Below, piece after piece: positions 10,451-44,903 of a stretch of 64,000 nt of DNA. The stretch is from the NCBI GenBank assembly GCA_900768845.1, contig CAAGEK010000024.1, positions 3,001 through 67,000 on the forward strand, written 5' to 3'. The notes under the pieces were generated by a model, which saw nothing but the letters and a program-made list of their open reading frames with translations, did not search any database and had not been told where the DNA came from. The DNA is from Alphaproteobacteria bacterium. GTDB lineage: Bacteria; Pseudomonadota; Alphaproteobacteria; CAAGCB01; CAG-977. Position numbers and translations under genes: made by a program. Numbering within the stretch: position 1 is the first letter of the stretch; each line of letters starts with the position of its first letter.

Positions 10451-11421
10451 CGGACGAGATTATAAAATATAATATTGCCGATGAATCTTTTGAAATCCGT
10501 CCCGATTATGAACAGGATACGGTTTGGATGACAAAAGCGGAAATGGCGCATCTGTTCGGGATAGACCGTTCCGGTGTTTCCCGCCACATTTCCAAAGCGT
10601 TTAAGAACAACGAACTGAACAAAAAAAGCAATGTGCAAAAAATGCACATTCCAAATTCGGACAGACCTGTTGAATTTTTTGACTTGGATGCGATTTTATA
10701 CGTCGGATATAAAACGGATTCTCAACGGGCTGTCCAATTCAGGAAATGGGCAAACCGCGTTTTAAAACAATATTTGTTAGAGGGCTTCACTCTTAATCAG
10801 AAAAAATTACAGGAGGAACAGGGGAAAAAATTCTCCGCTTTGCAGAAAGCCGTTGATTCAGTGCAAAGAGGGATAAAACGCCAAATAACGTCTTTAGACG
10901 AAGCGGACATGTTAATGCGGATTTTATCCGATTTTTCGCAGGGATTAAAGTTGTTGGACGATTTTGACAACAATGCGTTAGATGTACGCGGAAAAACGGA
11001 CAAAGAAGCCGTAAAAATCGAAGTCGCCGAATTTTTGACGGTGATTGATAAAATGAAACCGCAGTTCGGATCGGACGTGTTCGCCAATCCGAAAGACGAT
11101 GGTTTTAACAGTTCCGTCAATCAGATTTATCAAACATTCGGCGGGCAGGATTGCTATCCGACATTGGAAGAAAAAGCGGCAATGTTGCTTTACCTGATTA
11201 CCAAAAATCACAGCTTTTCGGACGGGAATAAACGCATCGCGGCACAATGTTTTTTGTATTTTCTGGAAAAGAACGGGCTTCTGTATCACCACGGACAAAC
11301 GTTGATCGACAATGCGACGTTGGCGGCGGTAACGGTTTTGATTGCTGAAAGCAGACCGGATGAAATGGAAACAATCAAACAAATGGTTGTCAGTATTTTG
11401 AACAGGAATAAAATGCAATAA
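10447..11421 (+). CDS. Fusion protein with an N-terminal RhuM-like domain and a C-terminal Fic/Doc (death-on-curing) toxin-like domain
   Basis: The start overlaps the preceding stop (ATGA). The N-terminus IIKYNIADESFEIRPDYEQDTVWMTKAEMAHLF parallels the RhuM N-domain. The C-terminus carries the Doc/Fic core motif HSFSDGNKRIAAQ (HxFx[DE]GNKR). Confidence 0.75.
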   Translation: MTDEIIKYNIADESFEIRPDYEQDTVWMTKAEMAHLFGIDRSGVSRHISKAFKNNELNKKSNVQKMHIPNSDRPVEFFDLDAILYVGYKTDSQRAVQFRKWANRVLKQYLLEGFTLNQKKLQEEQGKKFSALQKAVDSVQRGIKRQITSLDEADMLMRILSDFSQGLKLLDDFDNNALDVRGKTDKEAVKIEVAEFLTVIDKMKPQFGSDVFANPKDDGFNSSVNQIYQTFGGQDCYPTLEEKAAMLLYLITKNHSFSDGNKRIAAQCFLYFLEKNGLLYHHGQTLIDNATLAAVTVLIAESRPDEMETIKQMVVSILNRNKMQ

Positions 11422-11463
11422 AAGCGGACGGGATCAAGCGGAATTTGAAAAAGCTGAAAAAAG

Positions 11464-11500
11464 CGGGAAAACTGCGCCGCGTCGGTCTAGATAAAGGGAA
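11464..11500 (+). repeat. Duplicated 3'-end fragment of a rhuM-like gene (recombination scar)
   Basis: GGGAAAACTGCGCCGCGTCGGT at 11464-11485 is identical to 10393-10414 (end of rhuM). It translates as ...AGKLRRVGLDKGNKQ, a remnant RhuM C-terminus. Confidence 0.55.
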
Positions 11501-11632
11501 TAAACAGGTTGAAACGCAAGAAAAAACAGCCAAATTTTTCATTTTTTGATTGATTTATTTTGTGAAATAATAAAATATAGTTGCAATCAAAACGATGAAA
11601 ACAGTAAGTAGGAATTGATTGAAGGAAAGAAT

Positions 11633-12991
11633 ATGGCTGATACAGAATATTTAGATGAAGAACGCAAAAAAACATGGGAGCGTATAGAAGCCCTTGAAAA
11701 GGCTTTGCCGGCAATTCAGAAACTGGCAAACGAGGCTAAAAGCATTGCAGAAAGTAAAATAAGCACAACAGAAGCAGAAGCTAAAAAAGCTTTTGATAAT
11801 GCAGAATTACTTATGCAGAAAACGGAACAGCAAAGAATAGAAACATCTAACATTCTTAGAGAAATAGAAGAGATTTCAAAAAACTACAAAGAAAATAAGA
11901 ATAATCTTAAACATGCAATAAAAATTGCAAATGAAATTAGTGAAAAATTCTATCAGCTTGCTAAGGAAGAAACGGATATATCAGAAACTCAAAATCGGAT
12001 CAAAGTATTACAAAATGAAGTTTCTACCGAATTAGGCATAGCAAAAGCATCAAGAGAAAGTATTGTTACGATTGAAGCAGAAGTAAATTCTTCTTTAAAA
12101 AGGATAACTGATTTACAAACAACTGCAAAGGAACGAAAATCTGATATTGATGATTTATATAATGAAATTATGGGAGAAGAAAAACCAGACGGGGAACGCG
12201 AAGGAGGCTTAAAAGACAAATTGAACAAAAGCTATTTTGTAATTGAAGAAAAAATGAAAAAGTATTCAGAAAGTTTTGAAATTTTAAAAAATACATATGA
12301 CTCTGAATATGAAATTCGAAAAGAAAAATTGGATGAGTTAATGCCGGAAGCAATGGCAAAAGGATTGAGTGCTGCTTATGTTTCTCAAAAAAATGATGAA
12401 ATAAAACACAGAAAAATATCTTCTATTGTTTTTACACTAGCCATTGTTTCAATGGTACTAGTTTCATTAATTCCTGTTTATATTAATTTTTCTTTGCACA
12501 TTGAAAGTTTAAATAAAATGCAAGATTTAATAAAGAATTTTCCAAAAATGCTATCTTTAGTTATTCCTATCTATTTTCCGTTATTTTGGATAGCTTGGAC
12601 TTCGAATAAATCTATCAATCTATCAAAACGTTTAATAGAAGAATATGCTCATAAAGAAGTTCTAAGCAAAACTTATCTCGGATTAGTCAAGCAAATTCAA
12701 GATTTGCCGCAAGAAAATATGTCCCATGAATTACGGGCAAAATTACTATTTAATATGATAATAACTAGTGCAGAAAACCCTGGAAAACTAATTACAGATT
12801 ACAATAAAACTGATAATCCTTTAATGGAAATTATGGATAAAACAGCTGCAGTTGCAAATGCTGTGGATAAGTTTAAAAATATTCCAGGCATCTCGCAATT
12901 TGCAAAGTACCTAAATAAAAAAGCTGAAGAAGCTGAAAGAGAATTCTTGAAAAAAGCAACATCTGAAATTGATGATAAGGAAAGTGAATAG
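11633..12991 (+). CDS. Hypothetical membrane protein with an N-terminal coiled coil, two central transmembrane helices and a C-terminal soluble domain; candidate defence effector
   Basis: 452 aa from ATG 11633 (AAGGAAAG ribosome-binding site). The region is strongly AT-rich relative to its flanks. The coiled-coil-like region spans about 1-250. The two hydrophobic helices are ISSIVFTLAIVSMVLVSLIPVYINF and MLSLVIPIYFPLFWIAWTS. I recognise no family. Confidence 0.6.
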   Translation: MADTEYLDEERKKTWERIEALEKALPAIQKLANEAKSIAESKISTTEAEAKKAFDNAELLMQKTEQQRIETSNILREIEEISKNYKENKNNLKHAIKIANEISEKFYQLAKEETDISETQNRIKVLQNEVSTELGIAKASRESIVTIEAEVNSSLKRITDLQTTAKERKSDIDDLYNEIMGEEKPDGEREGGLKDKLNKSYFVIEEKMKKYSESFEILKNTYDSEYEIRKEKLDELMPEAMAKGLSAAYVSQKNDEIKHRKISSIVFTLAIVSMVLVSLIPVYINFSLHIESLNKMQDLIKNFPKMLSLVIPIYFPLFWIAWTSNKSINLSKRLIEEYAHKEVLSKTYLGLVKQIQDLPQENMSHELRAKLLFNMIITSAENPGKLITDYNKTDNPLMEIMDKTAAVANAVDKFKNIPGISQFAKYLNKKAEEAEREFLKKATSEIDDKESE

Positions 12992-13023
12992 AACACAATA
13001 CCAAAAATGATAAGGAGAAATAA

Positions 13024-14298
13024 ATGACAAAAACTAATCAAAAAATCCCTGAGAGGTGGAGTGTTACAAGACTTGAACTTTTAGGAGAATTTTCGAAAGG
13101 TTCAGGAATAACAAAAAATGATTTGATGCAAAACGGTTTGCCTTGTGTCAGATATGCCGAATTATATACAAAATTTGATTTTATAATTCCTTGCTGTATT
13201 TCATTTATATCCGAAGAAACAGCAAAAACGGCGAAACCGATTCGAATTGGAGATATTCTGTTCGCAGGCTCTGGAGAAACAAAGGAAGAAATAGGGAAAT
13301 GTGCTGTTTATATGAATCCTCTTATTGCTTATGCCGGAGGGGATAATATTATTTTCAGAACGACTAATGTAGTTCCTTTATATTTAAGTTTTTATCTAAA
13401 CACTTTAGGGCGGAAACAATTAAATAAACTTGGACAGGGGGATTCTATTGTTCATATTCATTCTAACGATTTGAAAAATGTTATTGTGCCTTTACCCCCA
13501 CTTGCAGAACAAGAGAAGATTGCGGAAATATTGGGGTGTTGGGACGACGGCATCGAAAAATTAAGCCGGTTGATTGAACAAAAGAAGTTGTTGAAAAAAG
13601 GGTTGATGCAACGCCTGTTGTCCGGCAAACAACGACTCTCCGGCTTCTCTGAACCATGGAGTATAAAAAAACTAGGAGAAATGGGGAAATTCGTATCAGG
13701 GGGAACGCCAGACACTGAAAAATCGAAATATTGGGACGGAAATATAATTTGGCTTACTCCCTCGGAAATAACAAAATTATCGACAAGGTTTGTGTCAGAG
13801 AGTGAAAGAAAAATAACAGACTTAGGATTAAAAAATAGTTCTGCTGTTTTGCTGCCAATCGGAAGTTTGATTATTTGTACAAGAGCAACCATTGGAGATT
13901 GTTGTATAAACATAAAAGAGGTTTCTACAAATCAAGGATTTAAAAATTTAATTCCGGAAAACAGCAATATTGATTTTCTATATTATATCATTTCATCACA
14001 TAAAACTGATTTAATCAGAAGAGCAAGTGGAAGCACTTTTCTTGAAATTTCAAAGCACGATATTGAAAAATTAAAATACTCTGTTCCCTCTCTTTCCGAA
14101 CAAAAGGCGATTGCGGACATTCTTTCCAAAGCGGACGAGGAAATCGACTTGCTGACTTCAAAATTGTCCGCGTTAAAATCGCAAAAAAAAGGCTTGATGC
14201 AAAAACTCTTAACCGGTCAAATCCGTGTAAAGGTGGATTCCGCCGCCCCTCTTTGCGAGCGAAGCGAAACAATCCAAAAAAGGCAGGTGACGGAATGA
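13024..14298 (+). CDS. hsdS: Type I restriction-modification specificity subunit (full-length, two TRDs)
   Basis: 424 aa with two variable TRDs and conserved central/C-terminal repeats (LAEQEKIAEILGCWDDGIEKL...; LSEQKAIADILSKADEEIDLL...LLTGQIRV). TRD1 is AT-rich. Confidence 0.85.
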   Translation: MTKTNQKIPERWSVTRLELLGEFSKGSGITKNDLMQNGLPCVRYAELYTKFDFIIPCCISFISEETAKTAKPIRIGDILFAGSGETKEEIGKCAVYMNPLIAYAGGDNIIFRTTNVVPLYLSFYLNTLGRKQLNKLGQGDSIVHIHSNDLKNVIVPLPPLAEQEKIAEILGCWDDGIEKLSRLIEQKKLLKKGLMQRLLSGKQRLSGFSEPWSIKKLGEMGKFVSGGTPDTEKSKYWDGNIIWLTPSEITKLSTRFVSESERKITDLGLKNSSAVLLPIGSLIICTRATIGDCCINIKEVSTNQGFKNLIPENSNIDFLYYIISSHKTDLIRRASGSTFLEISKHDIEKLKYSVPSLSEQKAIADILSKADEEIDLLTSKLSALKSQKKGLMQKLLTGQIRVKVDSAAPLCERSETIQKRQVTE

Positions 14299-14479
14299 GA
14301 AAAAAAATAAATCGCTTCGTCGCTATCGCTTCTGGCAATGACGAAAAAACGGGAAAAGAGAATAATGCAAAAAATAACCTCGGAGTGGTAACGCTACCAA
14401 GGCGCCATAGCACTTTCCGAGGACTATTGAGGGGTAAGATATCATTTTTCACGGATTTGTCAAGGGGGAATGAACGTCA

Positions 14480-15124
14480 ATGTTACAGTTATTGAAAGAA
14501 AGCTTTTCGGAACAACGTTTAAGCACTTATCAGCGAATAGCTGCAACAAAAGGGCTGTCTGAAGGAAAAGCAGTCGAATTATATAAAATCAATATCTTAA
14601 TTTGTGAAGAACTTTATGCCTTTATTGATTGTGTCGAAGTTTGTTTGCGCAATAAGATTCATAAAAAAATGACGGAGGCTTTCAAATGTCAAACATGGTA
14701 CGATTCCGTGCAATGGCTTCCCTTGCATCAGGACAGTCTGGATAACGCTAAAAAAGTTAAGTACCCTCAGGAAATACCTTCAGCTAATGATGTTATAGCC
14801 AGACTGAATTTCGGATTTTGGTGTCATATTTTTGACGCTTTTTATGAGCAACGTTTATGGATTCCGGTCTTACGTTTTCTTTTTCCCAATTATGCAGGCG
14901 CACCGTCGCGAAAGCATATATCCAACGTTTTCAACAAATTATTGAAAATAAGAAACAGAATTGCCCACTTTGAGCCTGTTATTAAAGACGAAGCGGATTT
15001 ACTCAAAAGCTATAATCAACCGGTAGAAGTTATAAATTGGATGAATCCGGAAATATATAATTGGTTTGAAACATTTAACAGATTTAAAGAACTTTACAGA
15101 CAACTGAAGTCTGGCGATTTTTAA
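14480..15124 (+). CDS. Abi_2-family (AbiD/AbiF-like) abortive-infection protein
   Basis: 214 aa. The conserved C-terminal motif LLKIRNRIAHFEPV (RNxxAH) and overall composition match Pfam Abi_2. It sits between hsdS and hsdR. Confidence 0.65.
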   Translation: MLQLLKESFSEQRLSTYQRIAATKGLSEGKAVELYKINILICEELYAFIDCVEVCLRNKIHKKMTEAFKCQTWYDSVQWLPLHQDSLDNAKKVKYPQEIPSANDVIARLNFGFWCHIFDAFYEQRLWIPVLRFLFPNYAGAPSRKHISNVFNKLLKIRNRIAHFEPVIKDEADLLKSYNQPVEVINWMNPEIYNWFETFNRFKELYRQLKSGDF

Positions 15125-15139
15125 AGAAAGGGCTGAAAA

Positions 15140-18100
15140 ATGACCGACTCTTATGTTCATCTTTTCTTTGATGAAGCGTGTCAATCGCAGTTGCCGTGCG
15201 TGGAAATGCTGGTCAATATGGGGTGGGAGTTTTTGCCTCTTGCCGATTTGGAAGCCGCACGGGAAAAAAATCCCGCCAAATCCGTTCTGAAATCCGTTTG
15301 CGAACAGGCTTTGGATAAAATCAACCGTTTTGAACATTTGGACAAGTCTTATCATTTCTCGCCCAAAAACATCGCTAACGCCGTTTTCGATTTGGAAAAT
15401 TTCCCGATGAAGGGGCTGATGACGACTTCCGCAGAAGTTTATGCCGATTTAATCGCCGGACGGGATTTAAAGGAATTTGTGCAAAATAAAGAATCTTCTT
15501 TCGATTTTAGGTTTTTCGATTTTGAGCATATCGAAAACAACCGTTTCCAAGTCGCTGTCGAAGTTCCTTTACGCGGCAAAGAAAACATTCGTCCCGACAT
15601 CGTTTTGTATGTCAACGGCATTCCCCTTGTCGTCATAGAAAACAAAAAATCCGCCGTCAGTGTGCAGGAAGCGGTCGTTCAGCTGATTGATTATCAAGCG
15701 AAGTTTCCGCGCTTTTTTTTGTTTCCTCAGTTGTTAATCGCGACGAACAAATCTGAATTTCTTTACGGAACGACAGGAACGCCTAAAAAATTTTATTCCG
15801 TATGGCAGACGGAGGATTTTGACGAAGAGGCGTGTCTGAACGCGATGACAAAAAAAATCGACGACGCCGTTTATCAAAAAATCCTTGCCGATTTGAACGG
15901 AGCGACTTTCAATCATCGCCAAAATACGGGAAAGAGGCTGATTTCAGAACAGGATCGCGGCGTTTTTGAGCTGTTGCAACCCGTCAGATTGATGCGGCTG
16001 ATTAAAAACTTTATCCTTTATGATGCGGACAAGAAAAAAATCGCCCGCCATCAGCAAATTCGCGCCATTTCCAAAACGATGGACGCCATTCGCTCTTTTG
16101 ACGGTAATTCCCGCAAAGGCGGTTTGATCTGGCATACGCAGGGATCGGGAAAAACGTTGACAATGGTGATGTTGGCAAGAGCGATCTTTTCGGACAAATC
16201 CATCAAAGATCCCCGTGTCATCGTTGTAACGGACAGAAAGGATTTGGACCGGCATATCCGCGACACGTTTAAACAGTGCAAGTTGAAACAGGGCGTTATG
16301 CAGGCGAAATCCGGCGCGGATCTGATAAAAAAACTGGAAGACCTTGAAAAGGTTGAAAATCTGGAAAATCCCAAAGGACGGGTCATTACGACTTTGGTAC
16401 ATAAGTTTGACGCGGCATTTAAAAAACGGTCGACTTTCAAAGACGAAGATCCGAATATCTTTATCTTTATTGACGAAGCGCACAGAACGCAAACGGGACA
16501 GGCCAATGCGAACATGGGAAAAATCCTGCCGAACGCGTGCGTCATCGCTTTTACCGGAACGCCCTTGATGAAAGGGGAACACGCCAGTTATCTGAAATAC
16601 GGGGGTTATATCGACAAATATACGATAGACGAAGCCTTGCACGATAAAAATATTCTGCCGTTGATGTATGAACAACGTCAAATCCGGTTTGAACAGTATG
16701 AAGGGTTGGTCAGGAAAAAGATCGATGATGACGAGGATTTTAAAAAGCTGTCCGATGAAAACAGGAAAAAATTACAGCAGGAAATCAAAGCGCGTGTTCT
16801 GTTCGAGCTTGACGACGTCGTTTCGGATATCGGCAAAGATATACAAAAGCATTTTATGAAAAACGCTTTTCTGACGGATGGAACGCCGAACGGATTTAAA
16901 GCGCAACTTGTCACGCCGTCCAAGGCTTCCGCCGTTAAATTTCAGCATTTTTTTGAAAATCAAACAGATATCGAAACCGCCGTCGTCATTTCAAACGAAG
17001 TCGGTAAAAATGAAAAGGATATTGAAGAAAAAAAAGAAGTTCGCGAGTTCCTGAAAGAAAAAACGGAAAAATCAGGAACATTGGACAAGTACGAAGAACA
17101 ATGTATCGACAGTTTTACGAACAACGATGACGGGATTCAAATTCTGATCGTTGTTGATAAACTCTTGACGGGGTTTGACGCGCCCAGAAACACTTTTTTG
17201 TATTTATTGCGCCCGTTGCAGGATCACAACCTGTTACAGGCGATTGCCCGCGTCAACCGTTTGTGCGATGAAACAAAAGAACAGAAAACGGCGGGATTTA
17301 TCATCGACTATTCCAAAAATCAGGAACATATCACGGACGCGATGCGGTTGTTTTCCAAATACAATCAGGAAGACGTCGCCGGAGCTTTAGAGGATTTGAA
17401 TAAAAAAATCGACGAACTGGACGGTTGTTATCAGGACGTGATCCGCTTGTTCAAACACTTGAAAAACTCGATCGATGAGGAAGAATATATCAGGGCTTTG
17501 GCAGATGAAGAGGCTAGAAAAGATTTTTATAAAAAACTGAACCGCTTTATTTCCGTATTTTCGGAAGCCGTGCTTTTCCGCGATTTTGAAACGACTTTCG
17601 GAAATGAAAAATCGGCTTTGTATAAGAAGCAATCCTTAAAGTTTTTGAACATCAAAAAATCCGCTGTTTGCCGTTATGCCGATGTGGTCGATTTGAGCGT
17701 CTACCGGCAAAAAATATACCGTGTTTTACAATCTGCCGTCAGTGTTGAGGAAATTAAAGAAGTTACTCAAAGCGTCGATATTATGAACCTGAACGGCATG
17801 AAAAAAGATCTGGAAAAGTTTTCTCCGAAATCCGCCGCGGAAGCCATGCTCGCGAACATGACGAGAAAGACTTCCGTTCTGATGGAAACCGATCCCGAAT
17901 TTTATAAGTCTTTTTATGAGAAAATTCAGGAGTTGATTGAAAAGCTGAACAAGGCCGACGCCGATTACGAAGAATTGTTTTCGGATGCGCAAGTCTTACA
18001 GCAGGAATTGATCAACCATGAATGCGAAAAATCTTCCGCAGACAGAACCGCGGATTTGTTCTACCGCAATTTGAGCCCCTTGTTTGAAAAAATCAAAGAT

Positions 18101-18322
18101 CGAAACTTACAGGAGGAAATCGGGAAACTGACGGATTTCTTCAAAAAGAATTTGATTGTCGAATGGTCGGTCAATGATGAAACGCAACGTATGCTCAAAA
18201 CGAAAATCGACGATTATCTGTATGATACTTACGGCGCGATTTTGAACGATACTTCGTGGGATATTGCCGAAGCTTTGATGAATTTGTCTTTGCATAACAA
18301 AGAGCTGTTCGATGTCCGATAA
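15140..18322 (+). CDS. hsdR: Type I restriction endonuclease R subunit (helicase/nuclease)
   Basis: 1060 aa. N-terminal nuclease region (VVIENKK), SF2 helicase motifs I (HTQGSGKTLTM) and II (FIFIDEAHRTQTG), and a C-terminal HsdR helical domain. Confidence 0.9.
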   Translation: MTDSYVHLFFDEACQSQLPCVEMLVNMGWEFLPLADLEAAREKNPAKSVLKSVCEQALDKINRFEHLDKSYHFSPKNIANAVFDLENFPMKGLMTTSAEVYADLIAGRDLKEFVQNKESSFDFRFFDFEHIENNRFQVAVEVPLRGKENIRPDIVLYVNGIPLVVIENKKSAVSVQEAVVQLIDYQAKFPRFFLFPQLLIATNKSEFLYGTTGTPKKFYSVWQTEDFDEEACLNAMTKKIDDAVYQKILADLNGATFNHRQNTGKRLISEQDRGVFELLQPVRLMRLIKNFILYDADKKKIARHQQIRAISKTMDAIRSFDGNSRKGGLIWHTQGSGKTLTMVMLARAIFSDKSIKDPRVIVVTDRKDLDRHIRDTFKQCKLKQGVMQAKSGADLIKKLEDLEKVENLENPKGRVITTLVHKFDAAFKKRSTFKDEDPNIFIFIDEAHRTQTGQANANMGKILPNACVIAFTGTPLMKGEHASYLKYGGYIDKYTIDEALHDKNILPLMYEQRQIRFEQYEGLVRKKIDDDEDFKKLSDENRKKLQQEIKARVLFELDDVVSDIGKDIQKHFMKNAFLTDGTPNGFKAQLVTPSKASAVKFQHFFENQTDIETAVVISNEVGKNEKDIEEKKEVREFLKEKTEKSGTLDKYEEQCIDSFTNNDDGIQILIVVDKLLTGFDAPRNTFLYLLRPLQDHNLLQAIARVNRLCDETKEQKTAGFIIDYSKNQEHITDAMRLFSKYNQEDVAGALEDLNKKIDELDGCYQDVIRLFKHLKNSIDEEEYIRALADEEARKDFYKKLNRFISVFSEAVLFRDFETTFGNEKSALYKKQSLKFLNIKKSAVCRYADVVDLSVYRQKIYRVLQSAVSVEEIKEVTQSVDIMNLNGMKKDLEKFSPKSAAEAMLANMTRKTSVLMETDPEFYKSFYEKIQELIEKLNKADADYEELFSDAQVLQQELINHECEKSSADRTADLFYRNLSPLFEKIKDRNLQEEIGKLTDFFKKNLIVEWSVNDETQRMLKTKIDDYLYDTYGAILNDTSWDIAEALMNLSLHNKELFDVR

Positions 18323-19025
18323 ACAAATATCCGTAGGGCAAAAAATTTATAATTATAACTTGTTGCTGTCTGAACGGAAAACGGCAACGATTTATATTTC
18401 AAACGATGCAAAGATTACTGTAAAAGCTCCGCTCAATGTCAGCATCGGCCGTATAGAAACATTTATCCGGCAAAAAGCAAAGTGGATTGCCGAGCAATTG
18501 GAAGAAGTGGAAAAATACAGGCAAATTTCCGATCGGAACAAATATTTGTCCGGTTCCGCTTTGCTTTATCTGGGGCGACAATACAAAGTCATTGTCAATC
18601 CCGCCCTTGAGCAGGAAAAGGTTCAACTGTTAAAAAACCGGATCGTTATTTTTACGAAACAGAACGTTCAAAACGAAATTCATAACGGATCGCTCGTTAA
18701 GCTTTGGTACGAAAAACGGCAAAAGCGCGTTTTTCGGGAGCGTTTCGCTTTGATTTCCGAGCAATTCCCCGATTTTGAAAATCCGAAACTGGCCGTGATT
18801 AAAATGAAAAACAGATGGGGATGCTATCGTATCAACGGCACGGTCGTTTTAAATCCGGAGCTGATCAAAGCGTCCAAACAATGTATCGACTATGTGCTTT
18901 ATCACGAGTTTTGCCACCATTTTTTCAGAAAACATGATGCGGACTTTTATAAAATGCTTGAAGAAAAAATGCCTGATTGGAAAAAGGTGAAAGAAAAACT
19001 TGAACTGCGATTTACATCAAATTAG
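18312..19025 (+). CDS. YgjP-like DUF45 / M48-family metallopeptidase-like protein
   Basis: 237 aa with HEFCHH (HExxH) near the C-terminus. It overlaps the hsdR stop. This family is frequently the last gene of type I RM operons. Confidence 0.8.
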   Translation: MSDKQISVGQKIYNYNLLLSERKTATIYISNDAKITVKAPLNVSIGRIETFIRQKAKWIAEQLEEVEKYRQISDRNKYLSGSALLYLGRQYKVIVNPALEQEKVQLLKNRIVIFTKQNVQNEIHNGSLVKLWYEKRQKRVFRERFALISEQFPDFENPKLAVIKMKNRWGCYRINGTVVLNPELIKASKQCIDYVLYHEFCHHFFRKHDADFYKMLEEKMPDWKKVKEKLELRFTSN

Positions 19026-19268
19026 TTCCTTTCCGGAACAATTCTTTTTGTGTCGCGTGTTATTTTTGCGGGATTTTCCAATTCCGGAAAAATCGCTTTT
19101 AAATAACCGGTCGGGCATAATCCGGTTTAAATTCATCGTGCCTGACGGAAAAATGCGTCGGGAATGTCCGTAATTATGACAGGAAGTTGCTAAAAACTTT
19201 CTCGTCAAACAAACGGAACGTTTTATCGAATGTTTCGGAATATCGACGCCGGAAGCAAAAACAGGTCA

Positions 19269-19274
19269 GGGGGG
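19269..19274. repeat. G6 homopolymer about 100 bp upstream of the T1SS operon start
   Basis: CAGGGGGGCAC, in the AT-rich promoter region preceding the hlyB-like gene. Confidence 0.4.
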
Positions 19275-19373
19275 CACAATTTTAAGATTTGCATATAGAA
19301 AATAACATATAGTATATAGAGCATGGTATATAAAAACGGACAAGCAAGTTTGCATCTTTTAAGGCATACCTTT

Positions 19374-21503
19374 ATGACCGAAACATCGGATAGCGGATTA
19401 TTATGTTTGAGCGTGATGGCGCAATTATTTGAGCGCAAGACCAATCCGCAACAATTACGGCATTTGTCAGGCAAGGGATCGGGGTTGTTTGACGAAACGG
19501 ATATTTTGCGCGGCGCAAAAACGCTTGATTTGAAAGCCAAGGCGATTCAAAGCGGGATGGAGCGGTTGGAACAAACGCCTTTGCCGGCGATCGGGTGTGC
19601 ACGCGACGGGACTTTTTTCGTGTTGGCCAAGTATGCGCCCGATAAAGTGCTGATTCACAGGCCGGAAAAAGGACGGCCGGAAATCATCAGTGCGGAGGCG
19701 TTCGCGGCATTATGGTCGGGGCGGTTGATTTTATTCACTTCCCGCCAAAGTTTAAAAAAAATGTGGCGGCGATTTGAAATCGCGTGGTTCATTCCGGCCG
19801 TTTTGAAATACAAAAAACTGTTCGGCGAAGTTTTGCTGTCGTCTTTGTTTTTGCAGATTTTCGCTCTTGTTTCGCCTCTGTTGTTTCAGGTGGTGATTGA
19901 TAAAGTGCTTGTCCATCACAGTTTAAGCACTTTGGACGTGATTTTTTTCACTTTGTTGTGCATGACGGTGTTCGAGTGCGTTTTAAGCACGTTGAGGACA
20001 TATGTTTTCTCTCACACGACGAACAGAATAGACGTCGAACTCGGCGCGCAACTGTTCAAGCATCTGTTGGCTCTTCCTTTGGCGTATTTCGGGGCGAGAC
20101 GTGTCGGCGACACGGTCGCAAGAGTTCGGGAATTGGAAAATATCAGGAATTTTTTGACCGGCTCGGCATTGACTTTGGTCATTGATACGGCGTTTACGGT
20201 TGTGTTTTTTGCCGTGATGCTGATGTATGCGCCTTTTTTGACGCTGATTGTCGCTTTGTCCGTTCCGTTTTATGTCGTTTTGTCGTTGCTGGCGTCCCCC
20301 GTTTTGCATAGAAGAGTGGAGGAAAAGTTCAAATACGGTGCGGAAAACCAAGCTTTTTTAGTAGAGTCCGTTTCGGCGATCGAAACGTTGAAAGCTCTGG
20401 CGGTCGAGCCTCAATCCGTTCGCAAGTGGGAAGAACAGTTGGCTGCTTATGTCGCAAGTTCGTTCAGAGTGTCCAATCTGGCGAACATCTGCCATAACGC
20501 AATCGGCTTTATTCAAAAAACGACGTCGGCTTTAACTTTGTTTTTCGGGGCAAAGCTGGTTATCGAAGGCAAAATGACGGTCGGACAACTGGTGGCGTTC
20601 AATATGCTGGCCGGTCATGTAGCGGCTCCGATTTTGCGGTTGGCTCAATTATGGCAGGATTTTCAGCAAGTCCGCATTTCCATCGACCGGTTGGGCGATA
20701 TTCTGAACACTCCGGCGGAACCGGCGGTCAATTCGGGGCAGGCTCCGGCGGTCGCGCTAAAAGGCGACGTGAAATTCAGCGGCGTTTCCTTTCGCTATGC
20801 TTTGGACAAACCGCAAGTCCTGTCCGACGTGACATTGCACGTCAAAGCGGGGGAAAGCGTCGGCATCGTCGGTTCTTCGGGGTCGGGCAAAAGCACGTTG
20901 ACAAAGCTTGTTCAGCGGCTTTATTTGCCTGAAACGGGGCGGATTACGATTGACGATATTGATATTTCCACGGCCGATCCTTCTTGGCTCAGGCGGCAAA
21001 TCGGCGTTGTTTTGCAGGAAAACACTTTGCTGAACCGTTCGGTGCGCGACAATATCGCTTTGGTCGATCCGGTTCAGCCGCTGGAAAATATCATTCGGGC
21101 GGCGAAAGTGGCGGGAGCGCACGATTTTATCGCCGAAATGCCGGAAGGGTACGATACGATCGTCGGGGAACGCGGAACTTCCCTGTCCGGCGGCCAGCGG
21201 CAGAGAATAGCCATTGCGCGGGCTTTGCTTGTCAATCCTCGCATTTTGATTTTTGACGAAGCGACTTCCGCCCTTGATTATGAATCCGAAGCTTTGATTA
21301 AAAAAAATATGGCGGCAATCGGCAAAAACAGGACGGTTTTCATTATCGCTCACAGGTTGTCCACGGTTCGGACGTGCGACCGGATCATCGTGATTGAAAA
21401 AGGCGAAATCGTCGAAGAAGGAACGCATGACGGCCTTCTTTCCCGCCCGAACGGCCGGTACGCTTATTTGTGGAACTGTCAGATGAACGGAGAAGCCGTA
21501 TGA
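19374..21503 (+). CDS. Type I secretion system ABC transporter (HlyB/RtxB family) with an N-terminal C39-like domain lacking the catalytic Cys
   Basis: About 709 aa from ATG 19374. End-to-end similarity to the HlyB architecture: a C39-like N-domain (DSGLLCLSVMAQLF, with Ser where peptidase C39 has Cys), a 6-TM domain, Walker A (GSSGSGKST), signature LSGGQRQR and Walker B (ILIFDEATS). Confidence 0.9.
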   Translation: MTETSDSGLLCLSVMAQLFERKTNPQQLRHLSGKGSGLFDETDILRGAKTLDLKAKAIQSGMERLEQTPLPAIGCARDGTFFVLAKYAPDKVLIHRPEKGRPEIISAEAFAALWSGRLILFTSRQSLKKMWRRFEIAWFIPAVLKYKKLFGEVLLSSLFLQIFALVSPLLFQVVIDKVLVHHSLSTLDVIFFTLLCMTVFECVLSTLRTYVFSHTTNRIDVELGAQLFKHLLALPLAYFGARRVGDTVARVRELENIRNFLTGSALTLVIDTAFTVVFFAVMLMYAPFLTLIVALSVPFYVVLSLLASPVLHRRVEEKFKYGAENQAFLVESVSAIETLKALAVEPQSVRKWEEQLAAYVASSFRVSNLANICHNAIGFIQKTTSALTLFFGAKLVIEGKMTVGQLVAFNMLAGHVAAPILRLAQLWQDFQQVRISIDRLGDILNTPAEPAVNSGQAPAVALKGDVKFSGVSFRYALDKPQVLSDVTLHVKAGESVGIVGSSGSGKSTLTKLVQRLYLPETGRITIDDIDISTADPSWLRRQIGVVLQENTLLNRSVRDNIALVDPVQPLENIIRAAKVAGAHDFIAEMPEGYDTIVGERGTSLSGGQRQRIAIARALLVNPRILIFDEATSALDYESEALIKKNMAAIGKNRTVFIIAHRLSTVRTCDRIIVIEKGEIVEEGTHDGLLSRPNGRYAYLWNCQMNGEAV

Positions 21504-22822
21504 GTGACAAGCCGTCTTTGGAACAACAGTTTTTGCCGGCGGTTTTGGAAATCACGGAAACGCCGCCGTCGCCTTTGGGACGGGCGACGATGTACGCGAT
21601 TATCGGCGTGTTTTGTTTCGCTTTACTGCTCAGTCTGATTTGTAAAGTCGATATTATTGCGATAGCTTCGGGAAAAATCATTTCAAGCGGGCACAACAAA
21701 CTGATCCAGCCGTTGAAAAGCGGCGTTGTCGCAGATATTTTCGTGCGCGACGGACAGGCTGTCAAAAAAGGCGACCCGTTGGTGCAAATCAAATTCGAAG
21801 ACGCCGAAGTCAACCGCATCCGCTTGGAACGGGAATTGTTGTTTGCGTCAATGGACGTGGCGCGGTTGACGGCTTTGCTGGCGGAGAATCCTTTGAAATC
21901 GTTTGCGCCGCCTTCTTCCGCTTCGGAAGAGCTGAAAAGCAAAAACAGGATTTTGTTAAAAAACGAAACGGATAAAATCAGAACACAGTTGGCCGTCATT
22001 GACGAACAAATCGTTCAGGCCGAAGCCGAAAAGGAAACGGCTCAAGCGTCGATAAAAAAGATTGAACGCCTTCTTCCGAACGTCCGTTTCCGCGTGGATC
22101 AGTACCGCGATATTTATGAAAAGGGCAGTATTGCAAAGTCTTTTTTTCTGGAAAAAGAAAAAGAGTTGATCCAGTACGAGGAAGATTTAAACGTTCAACG
22201 CAATACTTTGGCGGAAATCAAAGCGAAATTGCAGGTTTTGGCCACACAGAAAGAGCAGGAGAAATTGAATTTTAAAAACGACGTCCTTTACCGTTTGCAG
22301 GAAGCGTCCAACAAGGAAAAGTTGTTAAAAGACGAATACGCCAACGCGCAATGGATTGACGGCTTGACAACGATCAAAGCCCCCGAGGACGGTATGATAC
22401 AGGAAATGGAAATCCACACGGTCGGCGGCGTTGTCACTCCGGCGCAAACGTTGATGAAACTTGTTCCGTCCGACAGCGTTCTGGAAATAGAGGCAATGGT
22501 CTTGAACAAGGACGTCGGGTTTGTGGAGGAAGGGCAGGACGTCAGCATCAAGGTCGACAGTTTCCCCTATACGCGATACGGCACGATTGACGGAAAACTG
22601 GTGCATTTGTCACGCGACGCAGTCGAAAACGAACAGCTCGGCTTGATTTATATCGCGAGAATTTCCATGTCGCGGGACACTGTCCGCGTGGAGGATAAAG
22701 ACGTCCGTCTTTCCGCGGGCATGAGCGTTTCCGCGGAAATCAAGACCGGCCGCCGCCGTTTGATTGAAATTATCCTGACGCCGTTTATGGAATATGCATC
22801 TGAAAGCCTAAGGGAAAGATGA
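21500..22822 (+). CDS. Type I secretion periplasmic adaptor (HlyD family membrane fusion protein)
   Basis: 440 aa from an ATG overlapping the ABC stop (ATGA). It has an N-terminal TM helix, a long coiled-coil hairpin and the C-terminal HlyD barrel (LVPSDSVLEIEAMVLNKDVGFVEEGQDV...). Confidence 0.9.
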   Translation: MSDKPSLEQQFLPAVLEITETPPSPLGRATMYAIIGVFCFALLLSLICKVDIIAIASGKIISSGHNKLIQPLKSGVVADIFVRDGQAVKKGDPLVQIKFEDAEVNRIRLERELLFASMDVARLTALLAENPLKSFAPPSSASEELKSKNRILLKNETDKIRTQLAVIDEQIVQAEAEKETAQASIKKIERLLPNVRFRVDQYRDIYEKGSIAKSFFLEKEKELIQYEEDLNVQRNTLAEIKAKLQVLATQKEQEKLNFKNDVLYRLQEASNKEKLLKDEYANAQWIDGLTTIKAPEDGMIQEMEIHTVGGVVTPAQTLMKLVPSDSVLEIEAMVLNKDVGFVEEGQDVSIKVDSFPYTRYGTIDGKLVHLSRDAVENEQLGLIYIARISMSRDTVRVEDKDVRLSAGMSVSAEIKTGRRRLIEIILTPFMEYASESLRER

Positions 22823-23054
22823 GGGGGTGTAGGTATTTTTACAGGAAATGACGGTATTTTTTATAGAAAATGTCTCGTCTGATTACGAAATGAGGCCTTT
22901 GAGTTATAAACTTAATGGTTTTATGAAATTCGCTTGAAATATGGTATTACATTGCATACACTTTTCGTAAGCGTTTCGATATCGAATTATCGTTGACGTT
23001 GTTTTTTGGTTAATTGCCTAGGTGACACTTGGGCATAAGAATTTGGAGGGAAAG

Positions 23055-23588
23055 ATGGCTTTTGAAGGCGTAAAAATGACGGAAGAGGATAAGCGATTGG
23101 TGAACTCATGGCCGGAAGAAGCCAGAAAACTCGGTCGCGATTTTTTGGAGTATCGTCTTTTTCGGGGTGATCTATTAACTTCTCATGCATCACGCATGGC
23201 AGTAGATCGTGAAAGAGGATTTTATTTTATACGGAGCGCAGTTGAAAGCTTGGAGCCAGAGGGGCCCCTTGTTAATCCGACATACTTTTTTTATCTTTGG
23301 TGGAATGGCGGATTTATTGAAATATATGCGAAAAGAGAGAGAAAACGTAGGATTATATTGGAAAATGGAAGAGAAAATTATGAAACGTATTATTTGAGAT
23401 ATGATGCATTTCAGATGTATTTACATCAGGAAAAGACAGATTATACAAAAGAATACTTATTAGGTGTCCTTAAAGAGGCGTTTGAGGCTTATAAGATGTC
23501 TGGGAACAATCCTATATTTGATACTTATGTTGAGACGGTAGTCGTTGATTTTGATAAAGTTAAACTGGAAGGCGATTGGAGTAAGTAA
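23055..23588 (+). CDS. Hypothetical protein (AT-rich insert)
   Basis: 177 aa from ATG 23055 with a GGAGGG ribosome-binding site. No recognisable motifs. Low GC. Confidence 0.4.
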   Translation: MAFEGVKMTEEDKRLVNSWPEEARKLGRDFLEYRLFRGDLLTSHASRMAVDRERGFYFIRSAVESLEPEGPLVNPTYFFYLWWNGGFIEIYAKRERKRRIILENGRENYETYYLRYDAFQMYLHQEKTDYTKEYLLGVLKEAFEAYKMSGNNPIFDTYVETVVVDFDKVKLEGDWSK

Positions 23589-23589
23589 T

Positions 23590-23760
23590 ATGACGGATTG
23601 GATTGACAGCATTGAGTGGAATACCCTTGATGATAATGCGATTGTTCGAAAATTAATTGATAATAAGGAGAAAGTAGGTGAGGCGGAAATCCATAGAATT
23701 TTAGATAAACTGTCTGTTGATGTAAATAAATTTGATGCAGTTTATGAAATATATTCCTGA
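23590..23760 (+). CDS. Small hypothetical protein (AT-rich insert)
   Basis: 56 aa (MTDWIDSIEWNTLDD...). Its ATG lies 2 nt after the preceding stop, with a GGAG ribosome-binding site. Low GC. Confidence 0.3.
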   Translation: MTDWIDSIEWNTLDDNAIVRKLIDNKEKVGEAEIHRILDKLSVDVNKFDAVYEIYS

Positions 23761-23867
23761 AAGTCTAATAAAAATATAATACAGTCATTAATTATAATCT
23801 CTTTCTTGTATTGATATGTTTTGTGTGATACGCTGACATAATCAGTATTTACTGAAAGGTATTTTAC

Positions 23868-25148
23868 ATGGTACGTCCGTTCAACACAAGAAAGATTATG
23901 ACAAGTTTATTTTTGTTTCTGGGTGTAATTGCGTCTTGTTCTATGGCAAAGAATGAAAACGTCATGCACCCCGCCGGAAAAGAAAAGGCTGAAAACGTCG
24001 TGCAATCCGCCGGAAAAGAACCGGAAATAAGACCGAGTGATTATTCAAAAACAAAAAAGGAATACGCCGCCTCTTCAGTTCATCCGTTACCGCCATATCC
24101 GACCGAAGAACAACAGAATGAAGTTGTTTTTGACGAAATGAGATATGATGGTATGCGAGAAGCTTTTGAAATAATAAATAACAAATCATATAAAAAAATG
24201 CCTTCGTATGATTGTAATAAAGCGAAAACAGAAGTTGAAAAACTGATTTGTTCGAATGAAACGTTATCCGAATTAGATGCAAAAATGGCTTTATTGCATG
24301 AATATATGCAAGATTTGTATGATTTGGAGCTGACGCCATCCAGAGGGCATTTAGAATGGTTGAAGGCACGCAATAATTTCGAATGTAAGCCAAAAATAGA
24401 AAATAAAACGGACTGCCTTATATCTTTGTATGAGTTAAAAATAAGCAGTCAGTTAGCCGTTATTTTTATGCAACAGTTATATGCTGAAGATAGCATCAGG
24501 AATCGGGAAAATCAAAAAAATAAAAAGTTAAACAGATATTGGTTTGATTTGTTTTTAAGCCAAGGTTTTTCTGTCAATTTCAGGGGGGATTTTTTAGGAA
24601 GTCAGGTTGATTATTTGGGAGGTAGCTGCCCTGTGTTTGTAAGGATGAGGGGAATTTATCATCCTGATTATTTTACGTATGCCCTTGATCATGGCGCGGA
24701 TGTTAATTTGCAAAATAGATACTGTCCGCCGGTTCTATTTTATGCAAGCAGAGATGCAGATGTTGATAAGATTTTAGAAATGGGGGCGGATGTTAATGCA
24801 GTTTCAGGAAGCGGAGAGCCTTTGTTGGTTCATCGTACGGATCTTGCAGAAAAGATATTGCCATTAGGGGCTGATCCGAACAAGGCTAATGAATATGATG
24901 GAGAAACGCCTTTGATGAGGGGGGCGTATTGGATCAAAGCGAATTATTTGCCGGCGTACATTAAGTTGTTGGTCCGATACGGCGCAGATATAACAGCCAA
25001 AAACAAGGAAGGAAAAACCGCATATGACGTTTTGGTCGAAACGTATGACAATCCCAAAGTTTATGAAGATAGAAGACAAGAACTAAAGTTAACGGATGAC
25101 GAAATGAATAAATACTTAGATGAAGCAAAAAAATTATTAAGAAATTAA
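23868..25148 (+). CDS. Lipoprotein with a DUF1311 (LprI/lysozyme-inhibitor-like) domain and C-terminal ankyrin repeats
   Basis: Lipobox LGVIASC. The DUF1311-like cysteine pattern YDCNKAKTEVEKLICSNETLSELDAKMALLHEY...LEWLKARNNFEC. At least three ankyrin repeats (GADVNLQN..., GADVNAVSGSGEPLLVH..., GADITAKNKEGKTAYD). Confidence 0.7.
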   Translation: MVRPFNTRKIMTSLFLFLGVIASCSMAKNENVMHPAGKEKAENVVQSAGKEPEIRPSDYSKTKKEYAASSVHPLPPYPTEEQQNEVVFDEMRYDGMREAFEIINNKSYKKMPSYDCNKAKTEVEKLICSNETLSELDAKMALLHEYMQDLYDLELTPSRGHLEWLKARNNFECKPKIENKTDCLISLYELKISSQLAVIFMQQLYAEDSIRNRENQKNKKLNRYWFDLFLSQGFSVNFRGDFLGSQVDYLGGSCPVFVRMRGIYHPDYFTYALDHGADVNLQNRYCPPVLFYASRDADVDKILEMGADVNAVSGSGEPLLVHRTDLAEKILPLGADPNKANEYDGETPLMRGAYWIKANYLPAYIKLLVRYGADITAKNKEGKTAYDVLVETYDNPKVYEDRRQELKLTDDEMNKYLDEAKKLLRN

Positions 25149-25202
25149 AAAGAACAGGTCAATCCCGAACGGTATGCTCGGGATTGTCCCGAAACGGCGA
25201 TT

Positions 25203-26195
25203 TCACGGCTTTTTCCTTTTGTGTCCGCCGTATCCTTCACCGATGGTGCGCCCGATGGCCGGAATTTTTTCGCCGATGCCGCCAAAACAATGGAACGGTG
25301 TGCCGCTTGATCCGGCTTTATTCGGGTAAAGCTCGTAAAACTTACGATATTCGTCTTCCGTCACGTTCGGCATCACGACGTTTGCGCCGCTTTGCAAAGC
25401 AATGATGCGTCCGTCGGGATGCAGGCTTTCCATTGCTGTCGTGGCGGGAATGTTGATGTCCGGCAATAACAGGCGCATAATCGCCATCGTGCGCAAAGCC
25501 AAATGCAACGTTCCGCCCGCTTCTTTTCCCAGAGGCGTATCCGGATGGGGGATGAAAGGCCCTATGCCGGCCATATCGACTTCCAGATCTTTCAAAAACA
25601 GCAAATCGTCGGCGATTGAATCAAGCGATTGCCCCGGCAATCCGACCATGATGCCCGATCCGAGTTCAAACCCCAGTTCTTTAATCATCAACAGACATTC
25701 GTAACGCTTGTCCCAGCTCATTTCCGGATCAAGGCGATGATATAAGTCTTTGTCCGTCGTTTCAATGCGCATCAAATAACGGTCGGCGCCGGCTTCCCGA
25801 AAAGTTTTGTAGTCTTCATAACTGCGTTCGCCAATGCTGAGCGTGACGGCGACATCGAATTTTTTGATTTTTTCGATGATGCCCGCCATCTTTGAAGCAC
25901 TGAAGAACAGGTCTTCGCCCGATTGCAAAACAACGGTCTTAAAGCCCGTGACAGCCGCTTTCCTCGCCGTTTCAACCACTTCTTCGGGGCTCATGCGATA
26001 GCGCACGGCTTTTGTGTTTCCCCGCCGGATGCCGCAGTACAGACAGTTGTTCCGGCATATGTTTGAAAATTCTATCAATCCGCGCAAATGAACGGCGTCT
26101 CCGACATTCCGTTTCCGGACTTCGTCGGCGCGATGCAAAAGGGCTTTTTCGTTTTTTTCGTCTGACAACAGACGGATGACATCCCGTTTTTCCAT
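25203..26195 (-). CDS. Radical SAM enzyme of the HydE/PylB/BioB-like family (resembling [FeFe]-hydrogenase maturase HydE more than true BioB)
   Basis: 330 aa. A CxxxCxxC cluster (ICRNNCLYCGIRRGN), a GGE-type SAM motif (VVLQSGED) and the ADRYLMRIETTD and MVGLPGQS blocks. It lacks the BioB CPEDCKYC/YNHNLDT signatures. The start overlaps the mnmA stop. Confidence 0.7.
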   Translation of the reverse strand: MEKRDVIRLLSDEKNEKALLHRADEVRKRNVGDAVHLRGLIEFSNICRNNCLYCGIRRGNTKAVRYRMSPEEVVETARKAAVTGFKTVVLQSGEDLFFSASKMAGIIEKIKKFDVAVTLSIGERSYEDYKTFREAGADRYLMRIETTDKDLYHRLDPEMSWDKRYECLLMIKELGFELGSGIMVGLPGQSLDSIADDLLFLKDLEVDMAGIGPFIPHPDTPLGKEAGGTLHLALRTMAIMRLLLPDINIPATTAMESLHPDGRIIALQSGANVVMPNVTEDEYRKFYELYPNKAGSSGTPFHCFGGIGEKIPAIGRTIGEGYGGHKRKKP

Positions 26196-35514: not shown

Positions 35515-35603
35515 TCTGTTCCGCTTGCGGAATACGCGGATGCTTTATACAAAAACAATAGACAAAAATCATAAAACCGCTTATCCTTGAAAGCAAGAAA
35601 TCA

Positions 35604-35609
35604 TAGGGG
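35604..35609 (+). repeat. G6 homopolymer within the ribosome-binding site of the 789-aa paralog gene
   Basis: CATAGGGGGGCGCGAAGAAAATATG: the Shine-Dalgarno-like element is itself a G6 run, 13 nt before ATG 35623. Confidence 0.45.
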
Positions 35610-35622
35610 GCGCGAAGAAAAT

Positions 35623-44827: not shown

Positions 44828-44903
44828 TGGTGAGCGTGCCGGGACTCGAACCCGGGGCCACCTGATTAAAAGTCAAGTGCTCTACCAACTGAGCTACACG
44901 CCC
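44828..44903 (-). tRNA. tRNA-Lys (anticodon TTT)
   Basis: Reverse complement GGGCGTGTAGCTCAGTTGGTAGAGCACTTGACTTTTAATCAGGTGGCCCCGGGTTCGAGTCCCGGCACGCTCACCA. Cloverleaf with a 7-bp acceptor stem (one G-U pair), a CTTTTAA anticodon loop, a TTCGAGT T-loop and encoded CCA. Confidence 0.9.

Follow-up and report, generated by a model that had tools for sequence, protein, structure and literature searches.

The 64,000-nucleotide stretch analysed here (the window; positions 3,001 to 67,000 of contig CAAGEK010000024.1, from an Alphaproteobacteria bacterium) carries the hlyB and hlyD genes of a type I secretion system (T1SS), an exporter which probably looks orphaned only because an adjacent gene for a giant repeats-in-toxin (RTX) toxin has been deleted, so that of the cargo region a 47-codon stub and two genes likely to confer immunity are left; the probability that we attach to this explanation is about 0.7. 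An earlier note on the same DNA had described the HlyB/HlyD pair as an orphan, which is correct in so far as no cargo is found in the window, whereas the orphan status itself would be due to the deletion of the neighbouring RTX gene. The host is an uncultured alphaproteobacterium present in human-gut metagenomes; exact copies of the window proteins were found on metagenome contigs only, the closest genome matches by hlyB being metagenome-assembled genomes of uncultured Alphaproteobacteria/Rhodospirillaceae (87-89% amino-acid identity, UMGS1296 among them), followed by more distant Rhodospirillales at 62-64% identity. Coordinates are window positions, L-numbers designate contigs or loci of relatives, and the exporter genes and the region downstream of them are laid out as follows.

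19374..21503, forward strand: hlyB, for a T1SS ATP-binding cassette (ABC) exporter of 709 amino acids (aa) with a non-catalytic C39-like domain
21500..22822, forward strand: hlyD, for a membrane-fusion adaptor of 440 aa, overlapping hlyB by 4 nt
23055..23588, forward strand: w188, for a cytoplasmic protein of 177 aa without a Pfam family, a recurrent partner of giant RTX genes
23590..23760, forward strand: w56, a chimeric stub of 56 codons starting 1 nt after w188
23766..23867, forward strand: intergenic DNA homologous to the spacer between hlyD and the LprI gene of L083
23868..25148, forward strand: w426, for a lipoprotein (lipobox IASC, in the context …LGVIASC) with an LprI-like domain and ankyrin repeats
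25160..25186, no strand assigned: an inverted-repeat, terminator-like hairpin between w426 and the convergent hydE gene

To judge from their sequences, hlyB and hlyD are an ordinary, intact inner-membrane module of the HlyB/HlyD family. The open reading frame (ORF) containing hlyB, as delimited mechanically (19323-21503, 726 codons), scores 1031 bits with TIGR01846 (type_I_sec_HlyB; cutoff 725), and Pfam recognises in it Peptidase_C39, ABC_membrane and ABC_tran, in the order N-terminal C39-like domain, domain of six transmembrane segments and ABC ATPase; the hlyD ORF (21470-22822), which is full-length and adjoins the ABC gene, scores 364 bits with TIGR01843 (HlyD; cutoff 209). E. coli HlyB (7sgr) aligns with the window HlyB from end to end (residues 6 to 703, 838 bits). 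The true start of hlyB is very probably the ATG at 19374, because all close relatives start there and the homology with the DNA of L098 begins exactly at that base; hlyD starts in the relatives at the ATG at 21500. In an alignment with the C39-like domain of HlyB and with PCAT1, the position of the catalytic Cys (Y9 in HlyB, C21 in PCAT1) is occupied by Ser, while H83 and W77 of HlyB are replaced by Phe and Cys, respectively; given the Ser at the catalytic position and the Phe in place of His83, the domain is non-catalytic. The absence of the catalytic Cys had been noticed before, and the RTX-type substrates then deduced from it are in line with the published association of non-catalytic C39-like domains with large RTX cargo (PMC8277102). 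The motifs of the ATPase are unbroken in the translation, namely GSSGSGKST (Walker A), LSGGQRQR (signature), ILIFDEATS (Walker B) and IAHRLS (H-loop).

The two genes are intact, are under strong purifying selection and show no sign of decay. Compared with seven relatives, the ratio of non-synonymous to synonymous substitution rates (dN/dS) is 0.04-0.07 for both hlyB and hlyD; compared with L098 (dS ~0.13), HlyB has 14 amino-acid changes (dN/dS 0.08) and HlyD a single one against 35 synonymous changes (dN/dS 0.007). Twelve of the 14 HlyB differences lie within residues 47-129, in the C39-like domain, and the DNA of 19374-19760 is 91-94% identical to L098 4306-4690, as against 98% elsewhere; this local divergence could be due either to recombination at the 5' end or to a faster evolution of the cargo-binding domain.

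The class of the missing substrate, which the earlier note had left unknown, is indicated by the relatives, where the exporter is normally linked to giant RTX proteins; the cognate gene appears to have been adjacent in the window lineage as well and to be now deleted. Most of the loci at 57-64% identity with enough flanking DNA have, adjoining hlyBD, an ORF of 1,000-3,000 aa with 10-113 GGxGxD motifs. At 83-97% identity, an AT-rich array of variable composition comes after hlyBD and holds small unannotated genes, signal-peptide proteins of the LprI or LprI+ankyrin type, mid-size RTX-repeat proteins and giant RTX proteins; matches to HemolysinCabind in the giants reach 449 bits in L083 (27 stretches), 276 bits in L098 and 520 bits in L099. 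The locus form shown by the closest relatives, as read from their contigs, is hlyB-hlyD-(small accessory genes)-giant RTX protein. The nearest of them, L098, is 94.5% identical to the window in DNA over 19374-23719, and 97-99% identical in the hlyBD core.

The 2.3 kb downstream of the exporter have a GC content of 0.365, as against 0.499 for hlyBD, and contain three ORFs. The AT-rich three-gene insert previously reported at this place is therefore real; what does not hold is that it is unrelated to the exporter, its three ORFs being w188, an RTX stub and an LprI/ankyrin gene. Since the arrays of the relatives are also lower in GC than their hlyBD genes, the base composition would be a property of the cargo region and not the sign of unrelated foreign DNA.

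The trace of the deletion lies in w56. Bases 23590-23731 of this stub correspond to codons 1-47 of a giant RTX gene: blastp finds the L098 giant (E 1e-14) and an 82-aa stub of L098 (E 2.6e-17), and the first 43 residues are ~88% identical to P0152, a protein of relatives. At the DNA level, 22899-23731 is 93.4% identical to L098 8842-9674 and the homology stops at 23731, the homology with L102 stopping at 23729. From ~23717 to 23765, on the other hand, the window carries a relic of the 3' end of hlyD; indeed, 23717-23875 is 74.7% identical (E 1.3e-27) to L083 10413-10581, a segment consisting of the last ~35 nt of hlyD, the spacer between hlyD and the LprI gene, and the first codons of the latter. 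A match to the RTX 5' end followed by one to the hlyD 3' end makes w56 a chimera of the two, and the short motif GTTGA.G.AAATAA, common to both parental sequences at the switch point, is consistent with an origin by microhomology-mediated recombination. A giant RTX gene has evidently been lost next to hlyBD, and in the gene order of L085 the site of this gene is occupied in the window by the hairpin at 25160-25186.

That the RTX gene is missing through an assembly artefact, a repetitive giant gene having collapsed, is extremely improbable. Giant RTX genes do often end contigs in related loci, but the same junction occurs in three independent assemblies (the window, L097 and L096), it holds non-RTX sequence (the hlyD 3' relic and the spacer) not expected from a simple collapse, and in L098 an intact copy of the gene is accompanied by a stub of the same kind, of 82 codons. 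L097 (scaffold_114) is a scaffold of 104.5 kb, 100% identical over 22700-25300, with the same gene order from the restriction-modification island to pmbA as the window, and in L096 w426 is followed by hydE. In L085, moreover, a 92-aa ORF is composed of three pieces of an 813-aa RTX gene; together with the stub of L098, this suggests that deletion relics are normal in these arrays.

Both genes that flank the stub are companions of giant RTX genes in the relatives. The w188 family (31 clusters) has no Pfam domain, and a structure and fold search with w188 gave no match. L098_177, 98% identical to w188, is separated by 1 nt from the giant RTX gene (at least 1671 aa) that follows it; a second copy in L098 (81% identical) precedes the 82-codon stub, and the copy of L099-L101, 53% identical, lies on the other side of its giant RTX gene (>2,600 aa), 247 nt downstream. 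The spacing of 1 nt between a w188-type gene and a gene with the ADP-ribosyl-cyclase (ARC) head described below recurs in the window, twice in L098, and in L102; w188 is probably the immunity protein for this NADase head. As for w426, it is 75% identical to the product of a 383-aa gene of L085 that lies 22 nt upstream of a gene of 3375 aa, LprI/ankyrin lipoprotein genes directly preceding giant RTX genes in the relatives. Over residues 112-192 it can be aligned with the LprI domain of paralogues exceeding the Pfam cutoff (24-25 bits vs 22), whose invariant motif S-D-C-K-TE-EK-IC...L..LD it shares. It is probably a periplasmic immunity protein or an RTX-binding lipoprotein.

The rest of the window offers no other cargo. 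None of its ORFs has two or more GGxGxD motifs, and Pfam scans of ~50 window ORFs found no match to HemolysinCabind, HlyC or OEP/TolC, in agreement with the earlier statement that no RTX protein, acyltransferase or outer-membrane component is encoded in the window. Among the window ORFs, the HlyC-type toxin-activating acyltransferase of an hlyCABD-type operon is thus absent, as are two components of a complete T1SS, the TolC-type outer-membrane factor and an RTX substrate with a C-terminal signal, the last being present in the relatives. Since HlyC and TolC are also missing from the complete loci of the relatives, their absence at the window locus is uninformative. A tblastx comparison of nine related loci with the whole window revealed no further cargo relics outside 19300-25200. 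Two candidates for a non-RTX substrate were rejected: three DUF6782 metallopeptidases, paralogous to one another, and further ORFs without annotation have no support, as they are Cys-rich, basic or neutral in isoelectric point and devoid of RTX repeats, and the ankyrin protein w426, considered as a T1SS ankyrin substrate of the Rickettsiales type, is ruled out by its lipoprotein signal peptide (lipobox IASC).

The nature of the lost protein can be approached through its relatives' proteins (P0152 and the L098 giant), in which the head domain was analysed, the window retaining only the 47-codon stub. The N-terminal head of these two proteins has 104 relatives, located at the N-termini of proteins of up to 3,609 aa. 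Compared with the PDB, a profile of 23 head sequences matches 9ro8 (E 2.2e-9), 9ouf/Tac1 (E 6.2e-9) and, at E ~0.009, CD38 and the ADP-ribosyl cyclases; the Pfam family Rib_hydrolayse (PF02267) is detected in 9 of the 23 members with a best E of 4e-5, P0152 staying below the gathering score (15.6 vs 25 bits). The relation is seen only with the 23-sequence profile: a single-sequence phmmer search of the PDB with the L098 head found no match, and a single-sequence AlphaFold2 model of the head, with a mean confidence (pLDDT) of 37, was not used. TVLYSG, W115, S119, F122 and E148 are invariant in the head, the Trp, Ser and Glu columns being those which we take to be W189, S193 and the catalytic E226 of CD38. 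The head of the lost protein would accordingly have belonged to the ARC (NADase) toxin family. Other relatives have heads with borderline matches to phage lysozyme (20-22 bits vs a cutoff of 22.3) and to lipase_3, and it is these lysozyme- and lipase_3-type heads that adjoin LprI ('lysozyme inhibitor') proteins. ARC toxins, antibacterial NADases acting by NAD(P)+ depletion, are countered by an immunity protein encoded next to them; as their carriers, type VI secretion systems (T6SS), type VII secretion systems (T7SS) and CdiA have so far been described (PMC12356396, PMC12605009), while DUF1311/LprI proteins have been implicated in T6SS immunity (PMC12135965). The adjacent immunity genes of ARC toxins and the LprI proteins beside lysozyme-like heads lend support, not proof, to the assignment of w188 and w426 as immunity proteins.

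The events at the locus are pictured as follows. Recombination has removed the RTX gene, its first 47 codons staying in place and being joined through the short shared motif to the last ~30 nt of an hlyD copy; what follows the junction is the spacer and the LprI/ankyrin lipoprotein gene that come after hlyD in another locus type. The lost cargo would have been a T1SS-exported RTX toxin with an N-terminal, NAD(P)-depleting ADP-ribosyl-cyclase-like head, for which w188 may act as cytoplasmic immunity protein, the LprI/ankyrin lipoprotein acting possibly as periplasmic immunity protein against lysozyme-like RTX heads; the strain would then stay protected from the toxins of its relatives without making the lost toxin itself. 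Export is expected to proceed as in HlyBD, the C39-like domain tethering the unfolded RTX cargo and the C-terminal signal being recognised, with ATP-driven passage through an unlinked TolC-like channel. The continuing purifying selection on the exporter means either that the deletion happened recently or that a further RTX substrate is encoded elsewhere.

Several observations weigh against this reconstruction. The ARC assignment leans mainly on ~50 residues of the C-terminal lobe, in the proteins of relatives; the immunity roles suggested for w188 and w426 are read from gene position only; for w426, LprI/DUF1311 (PF07007) gave no match even at E values of up to 1, and a profile of its LprI-like region gave no match in the PDB. 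The giants have BapA_N and weak LapA matches, so that they could be adhesin-like, and the toxin reading would require an RTX protein released through a T1SS to deliver an NADase into a target cell. The search for other substrates and for TolC, finally, covers the 64-kb window of the genome.

Different present functions of the exporter are conceivable. The pair may be in use for RTX proteins encoded elsewhere in the genome, the local deletion having taken just one cargo gene among several; such a reading agrees with the deletion history and departs from it only as regards the present function, and we place it somewhat short of an even chance. The intact state of the pair and its strong constraint since the split from L098 (in hlyD, 1 non-synonymous against 35 synonymous changes) are what would be expected, unlinked T1SS and substrate genes are known (PMC5472700), and L102 (scaffold_2423), from the same metagenome sample as the scaffold of the window (SAMN02334140, ERZ28566611), contains, after a fragment of a w188-like gene, toxin-head/SPM cassettes in an array; yet L102 is just 85% identical to the window over 265 nt and may come from another strain or species, its cassettes are truncated with no RTX C-termini in the 10.5 kb seen, and the 64-kb window itself has no RTX gene. 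That the pair is instead a freshly orphaned, functionless relic heading for decay is rather unlikely, the window hlyBD having no disabling mutation, every ATPase motif and a very low dN/dS, even though bare hlyBD pairs (in the order 197 aa-hlyB-hlyD-CDGSH) without adjacent cargo exist in related species (L091, L004, L093-L095) and one such lineage (L004, L093-L095) has its hlyB split by a 1-nt deletion. In this lineage the change from GATCCACC to GATCACC at ~codon 96 splits off the C39-like domain, giving products of 119 + 570 aa (L004 1088-3222, L093 9579-11713, L094 and L095; the cluster of the truncated protein has 81 member sequences); the split-hlyB loci have no adjacent RTX gene, and the sister contig L091 is intact.

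A distinctly unlikely view is that the giants are surface adhesins of the LapA/BapA type, w188 being a cytoplasmic chaperone and w426 an FrpD-like lipoprotein which holds the RTX N-terminus at the surface. BapA_N, HCBP_related and weak LapA matches are indeed found in the giants of the relatives, LprI/ankyrin genes lie directly 5' of giant RTX genes, and the lipoprotein FrpD is encoded upstream of frpC and binds the N-terminal part of FrpC (PMC5472700), so that an FrpD-like, RTX-binding role of w426 is a fair rival to immunity. Against adhesins, the heads match enzymatic toxin families (ARC with its conserved catalytic columns; phage lysozyme and lipase_3 at the borderline), between the head cassettes lie multi-pass membrane proteins and signal-peptide proteins, an alternation known from toxin/immunity arrays, and Pfam reported no Ig-like extender repeats. 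Tentatively, and with rather more room for doubt than for belief, the deletion may be set in a wider frame, in which the whole clade would export giant RTX 'polymorphic toxins' by HlyBD, with variable enzymatic heads at the N-terminus that are swapped by recombination in the SPM segment with silent head+SPM cassettes, each paired with an immunity-like gene. The head types found in the relatives are ARC/NADase-like, lysozyme-like and lipase-like; the immunity-like genes would then be the cytoplasmic w188 type, the periplasmic LprI/ankyrin type and the multi-pass membrane proteins. In the relatives, the head+SPM cassettes end in a 76-97% identical segment, also found near the N-terminus of the giant RTX gene and labelled SPM (PF26745) in precomputed matches, and in alternation with them come multi-pass membrane proteins of 138-293 aa and proteins with a signal peptide; the combination of variable modules, conserved segment and orphan cassettes typical of polymorphic toxins is thus found in the relatives only, not in the window. 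The arrays have the look of a system for switching cassettes at the N-terminus, in mirror image to the CdiA/Rhs orphan arrays.

Arrays of truncated 'head + RTX + SPM' cassettes, 170-813 aa long, were observed at L085 13450-22130, L086 5123-13803, L089 13450-22130 and L102 1-10509. Genes for a relaxase, MobC, ArdC, HU and a UmuC/YolD-type polymerase lie directly 5' of hlyBD and its cargo in L002 1-10000, L082 1-10000, L083 1-7000 and L098 1-4300, which suggests that the T1SS-RTX module rides on a mobilisable element; the upstream context of hlyBD differs in every species examined, being the restriction-modification island in the window and dnaA-dnaN-recF-gyrB in L085/L089.

Among the known systems, the window exporter most directly compares with the E. 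coli hlyCABD system (7sgr, 3zua), with which it shares the end-to-end HlyB alignment, the Cys-less C39-like domain, the overlap of the HlyD adaptor gene with the ABC gene and an unlinked TolC; it differs in the lack of hlyC, in the position of the cargo, which in the relatives lies downstream and not upstream of hlyBD, in the replacement of the stacking His and Trp by Phe and Cys, and in the cargo itself, in the relatives an RTX protein of giant size with many repeats and an N-terminal enzymatic head, not a pore-former. Like the Frp proteins (FrpC and FrpA) of N. meningitidis, the RTX proteins of the relatives have variable N-terminal domains and a lipoprotein gene directly upstream, and exporter and cargo of Frp can be unlinked (PMC5472700); here, in contrast, exporter and cargo are linked in the relatives, and the lipoprotein is of the LprI/ankyrin type, likened to FrpD by position. 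The RTX adhesins LapA, BapA and FrhA resemble the giants in size, in their C39-like-domain ABC exporter and in the BapA_N/LapA-like matches, whereas no LapG/LapD genes or Ig-like extender arrays were detected in the relatives, where enzymatic heads and immunity-like neighbours are present.

With CdiA, Rhs and MafB, the loci of the relatives share toxin domains of variable type, small immunity-like genes next to these, truncated cassettes that stand in arrays and have a conserved recombination segment in common, and deletion relics, and the window shares the retention of immunity-like genes without the toxin; the polarity is mirrored, with the variable head at the N-terminus and SPM at the 3' end of the cassette, and the secretion system is a T1SS and not of type V (T5), T6 or T7. 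The position of the SPM segment at the cassette 3' end is consistent with a C-terminal T1SS signal. The ARC toxins Tac1 (9OUF) and Pantoea ARCtox are both matched by the head profile (E ~1e-9) and have in common with the head the Trp, Ser and Glu columns and an adjacent small gene. The known ARC domains, however, sit at the C-terminus of T6SS, T7SS or CdiA carriers and are accompanied by Imm74 or another immunity protein, and the papers that describe them do not mention RTX proteins or T1SS (PMC12356396, PMC12605009), while the present domain sits at the N-terminus of an RTX protein, beside w188, a protein of no known family. Among the papers listed in searches on T1SS and on polymorphic toxins, none was an obvious match to the locus type of the relatives by title or abstract; this locus type would unite T1SS/RTX export with polymorphic toxin/immunity arrays, each of which is already known.

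The exporter as such is routine, and with the gene deletion accounting for its orphan status most of the puzzle is gone. What remains of wider interest is that RTX proteins linked to a T1SS, with N-terminal heads resembling toxins and neighbours resembling immunity genes, seem to occur in gut Alphaproteobacteria that are abundant though uncultured, that w188 belongs to a conserved unannotated family for which inhibition of an ARC NADase may be proposed as function, and that the window is a clean natural case of likely immunity genes and an exporter outlasting the toxin, comparable to the orphan-immunity islands of other gut bacteria. If the polymorphic-toxin proposal is true, a new carrier for ARC toxins is added, the mirror image of the C-terminal cassettes of CdiA, Rhs and MafB, and the window would represent a 'disarmed but immune' state, with the toxin deleted and the exporter and immunity genes kept.

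The DNA upstream of hlyB contains the following elements.

19269..19274, forward strand: G6 tract, 99 nt 5' of the ATG at 19374, outside any conserved element
19281..19297, forward strand: box TTTAAGATTTGCATATA, recurring in the hlyB upstream DNA of L082, L085, L002 and L003
19292..19319, forward strand: three (C/T)ATATAG copies, from an 18-nt insertion relative to L002 and L003

The box TTTAAGATTTGCATATA, which is missing in L098, L091, L092 and L093, is a candidate -35 region or operator. The G6 tract about 100 bp upstream and the tandem (C/T)ATATAG repeats had been correctly reported; the copies are CATATAG at 19292-19298 and 19306-19312 and TATATAG at 19313-19319, and the 18-nt insertion behind the cluster is specific to the window genome. 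It had also been proposed to look for variation in the length of the G tract, an idea which finds no support, the tract being short, one of 14 G/C runs of at least six in the window, not rarer than chance, unchanged in length in the independent contig L001, and missing from the hlyB upstream regions of all relatives. That the tract and the repeats make hlyBD a phase-variable (contingency) locus is very improbable: the three YATATAG copies are indeed clustered (three of the eight sites in the window, where 2.2 are expected, lie within a 28-nt stretch upstream of hlyB) and the G6 tract is close by, but the latter lies upstream of the conserved box, outside any promoter spacer, and the long tract of length varying between genomes that characterises contingency loci is not found upstream of hlyB.

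As to the other contents of the window, a low-GC (~0.40) defence island extends just upstream of hlyB (7129-19025) and comprises a partial hsdS, hsdM, a RhuM protein, a RhuM+Fic protein, a 458-aa Cys-free coiled-coil protein, a full hsdS, an Abi-like protein, hsdR and a YgjP-like metallopeptidase. The three paralogues of the putative metallopeptidase family DUF6782 lie at 486-1403 (reverse strand), 35587-37992 (forward) and 38005-38916 (forward); one of them is 801 aa long, and none has an obvious signal peptide. A Mom-family protein (43905-44444, forward strand; 204 bits) is encoded ~400 nt from a tRNA-Lys gene (44828-44903, reverse strand), and the two may be what remains of a prophage or island involved in DNA modification. 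Finally, a 1405-aa fusion of a BadF/BcrAD-type ATPase with DUF2229, of the CoA-enzyme activase type (39297-43514, reverse strand), and hydE (25203-26195) fit an anaerobic lifestyle.

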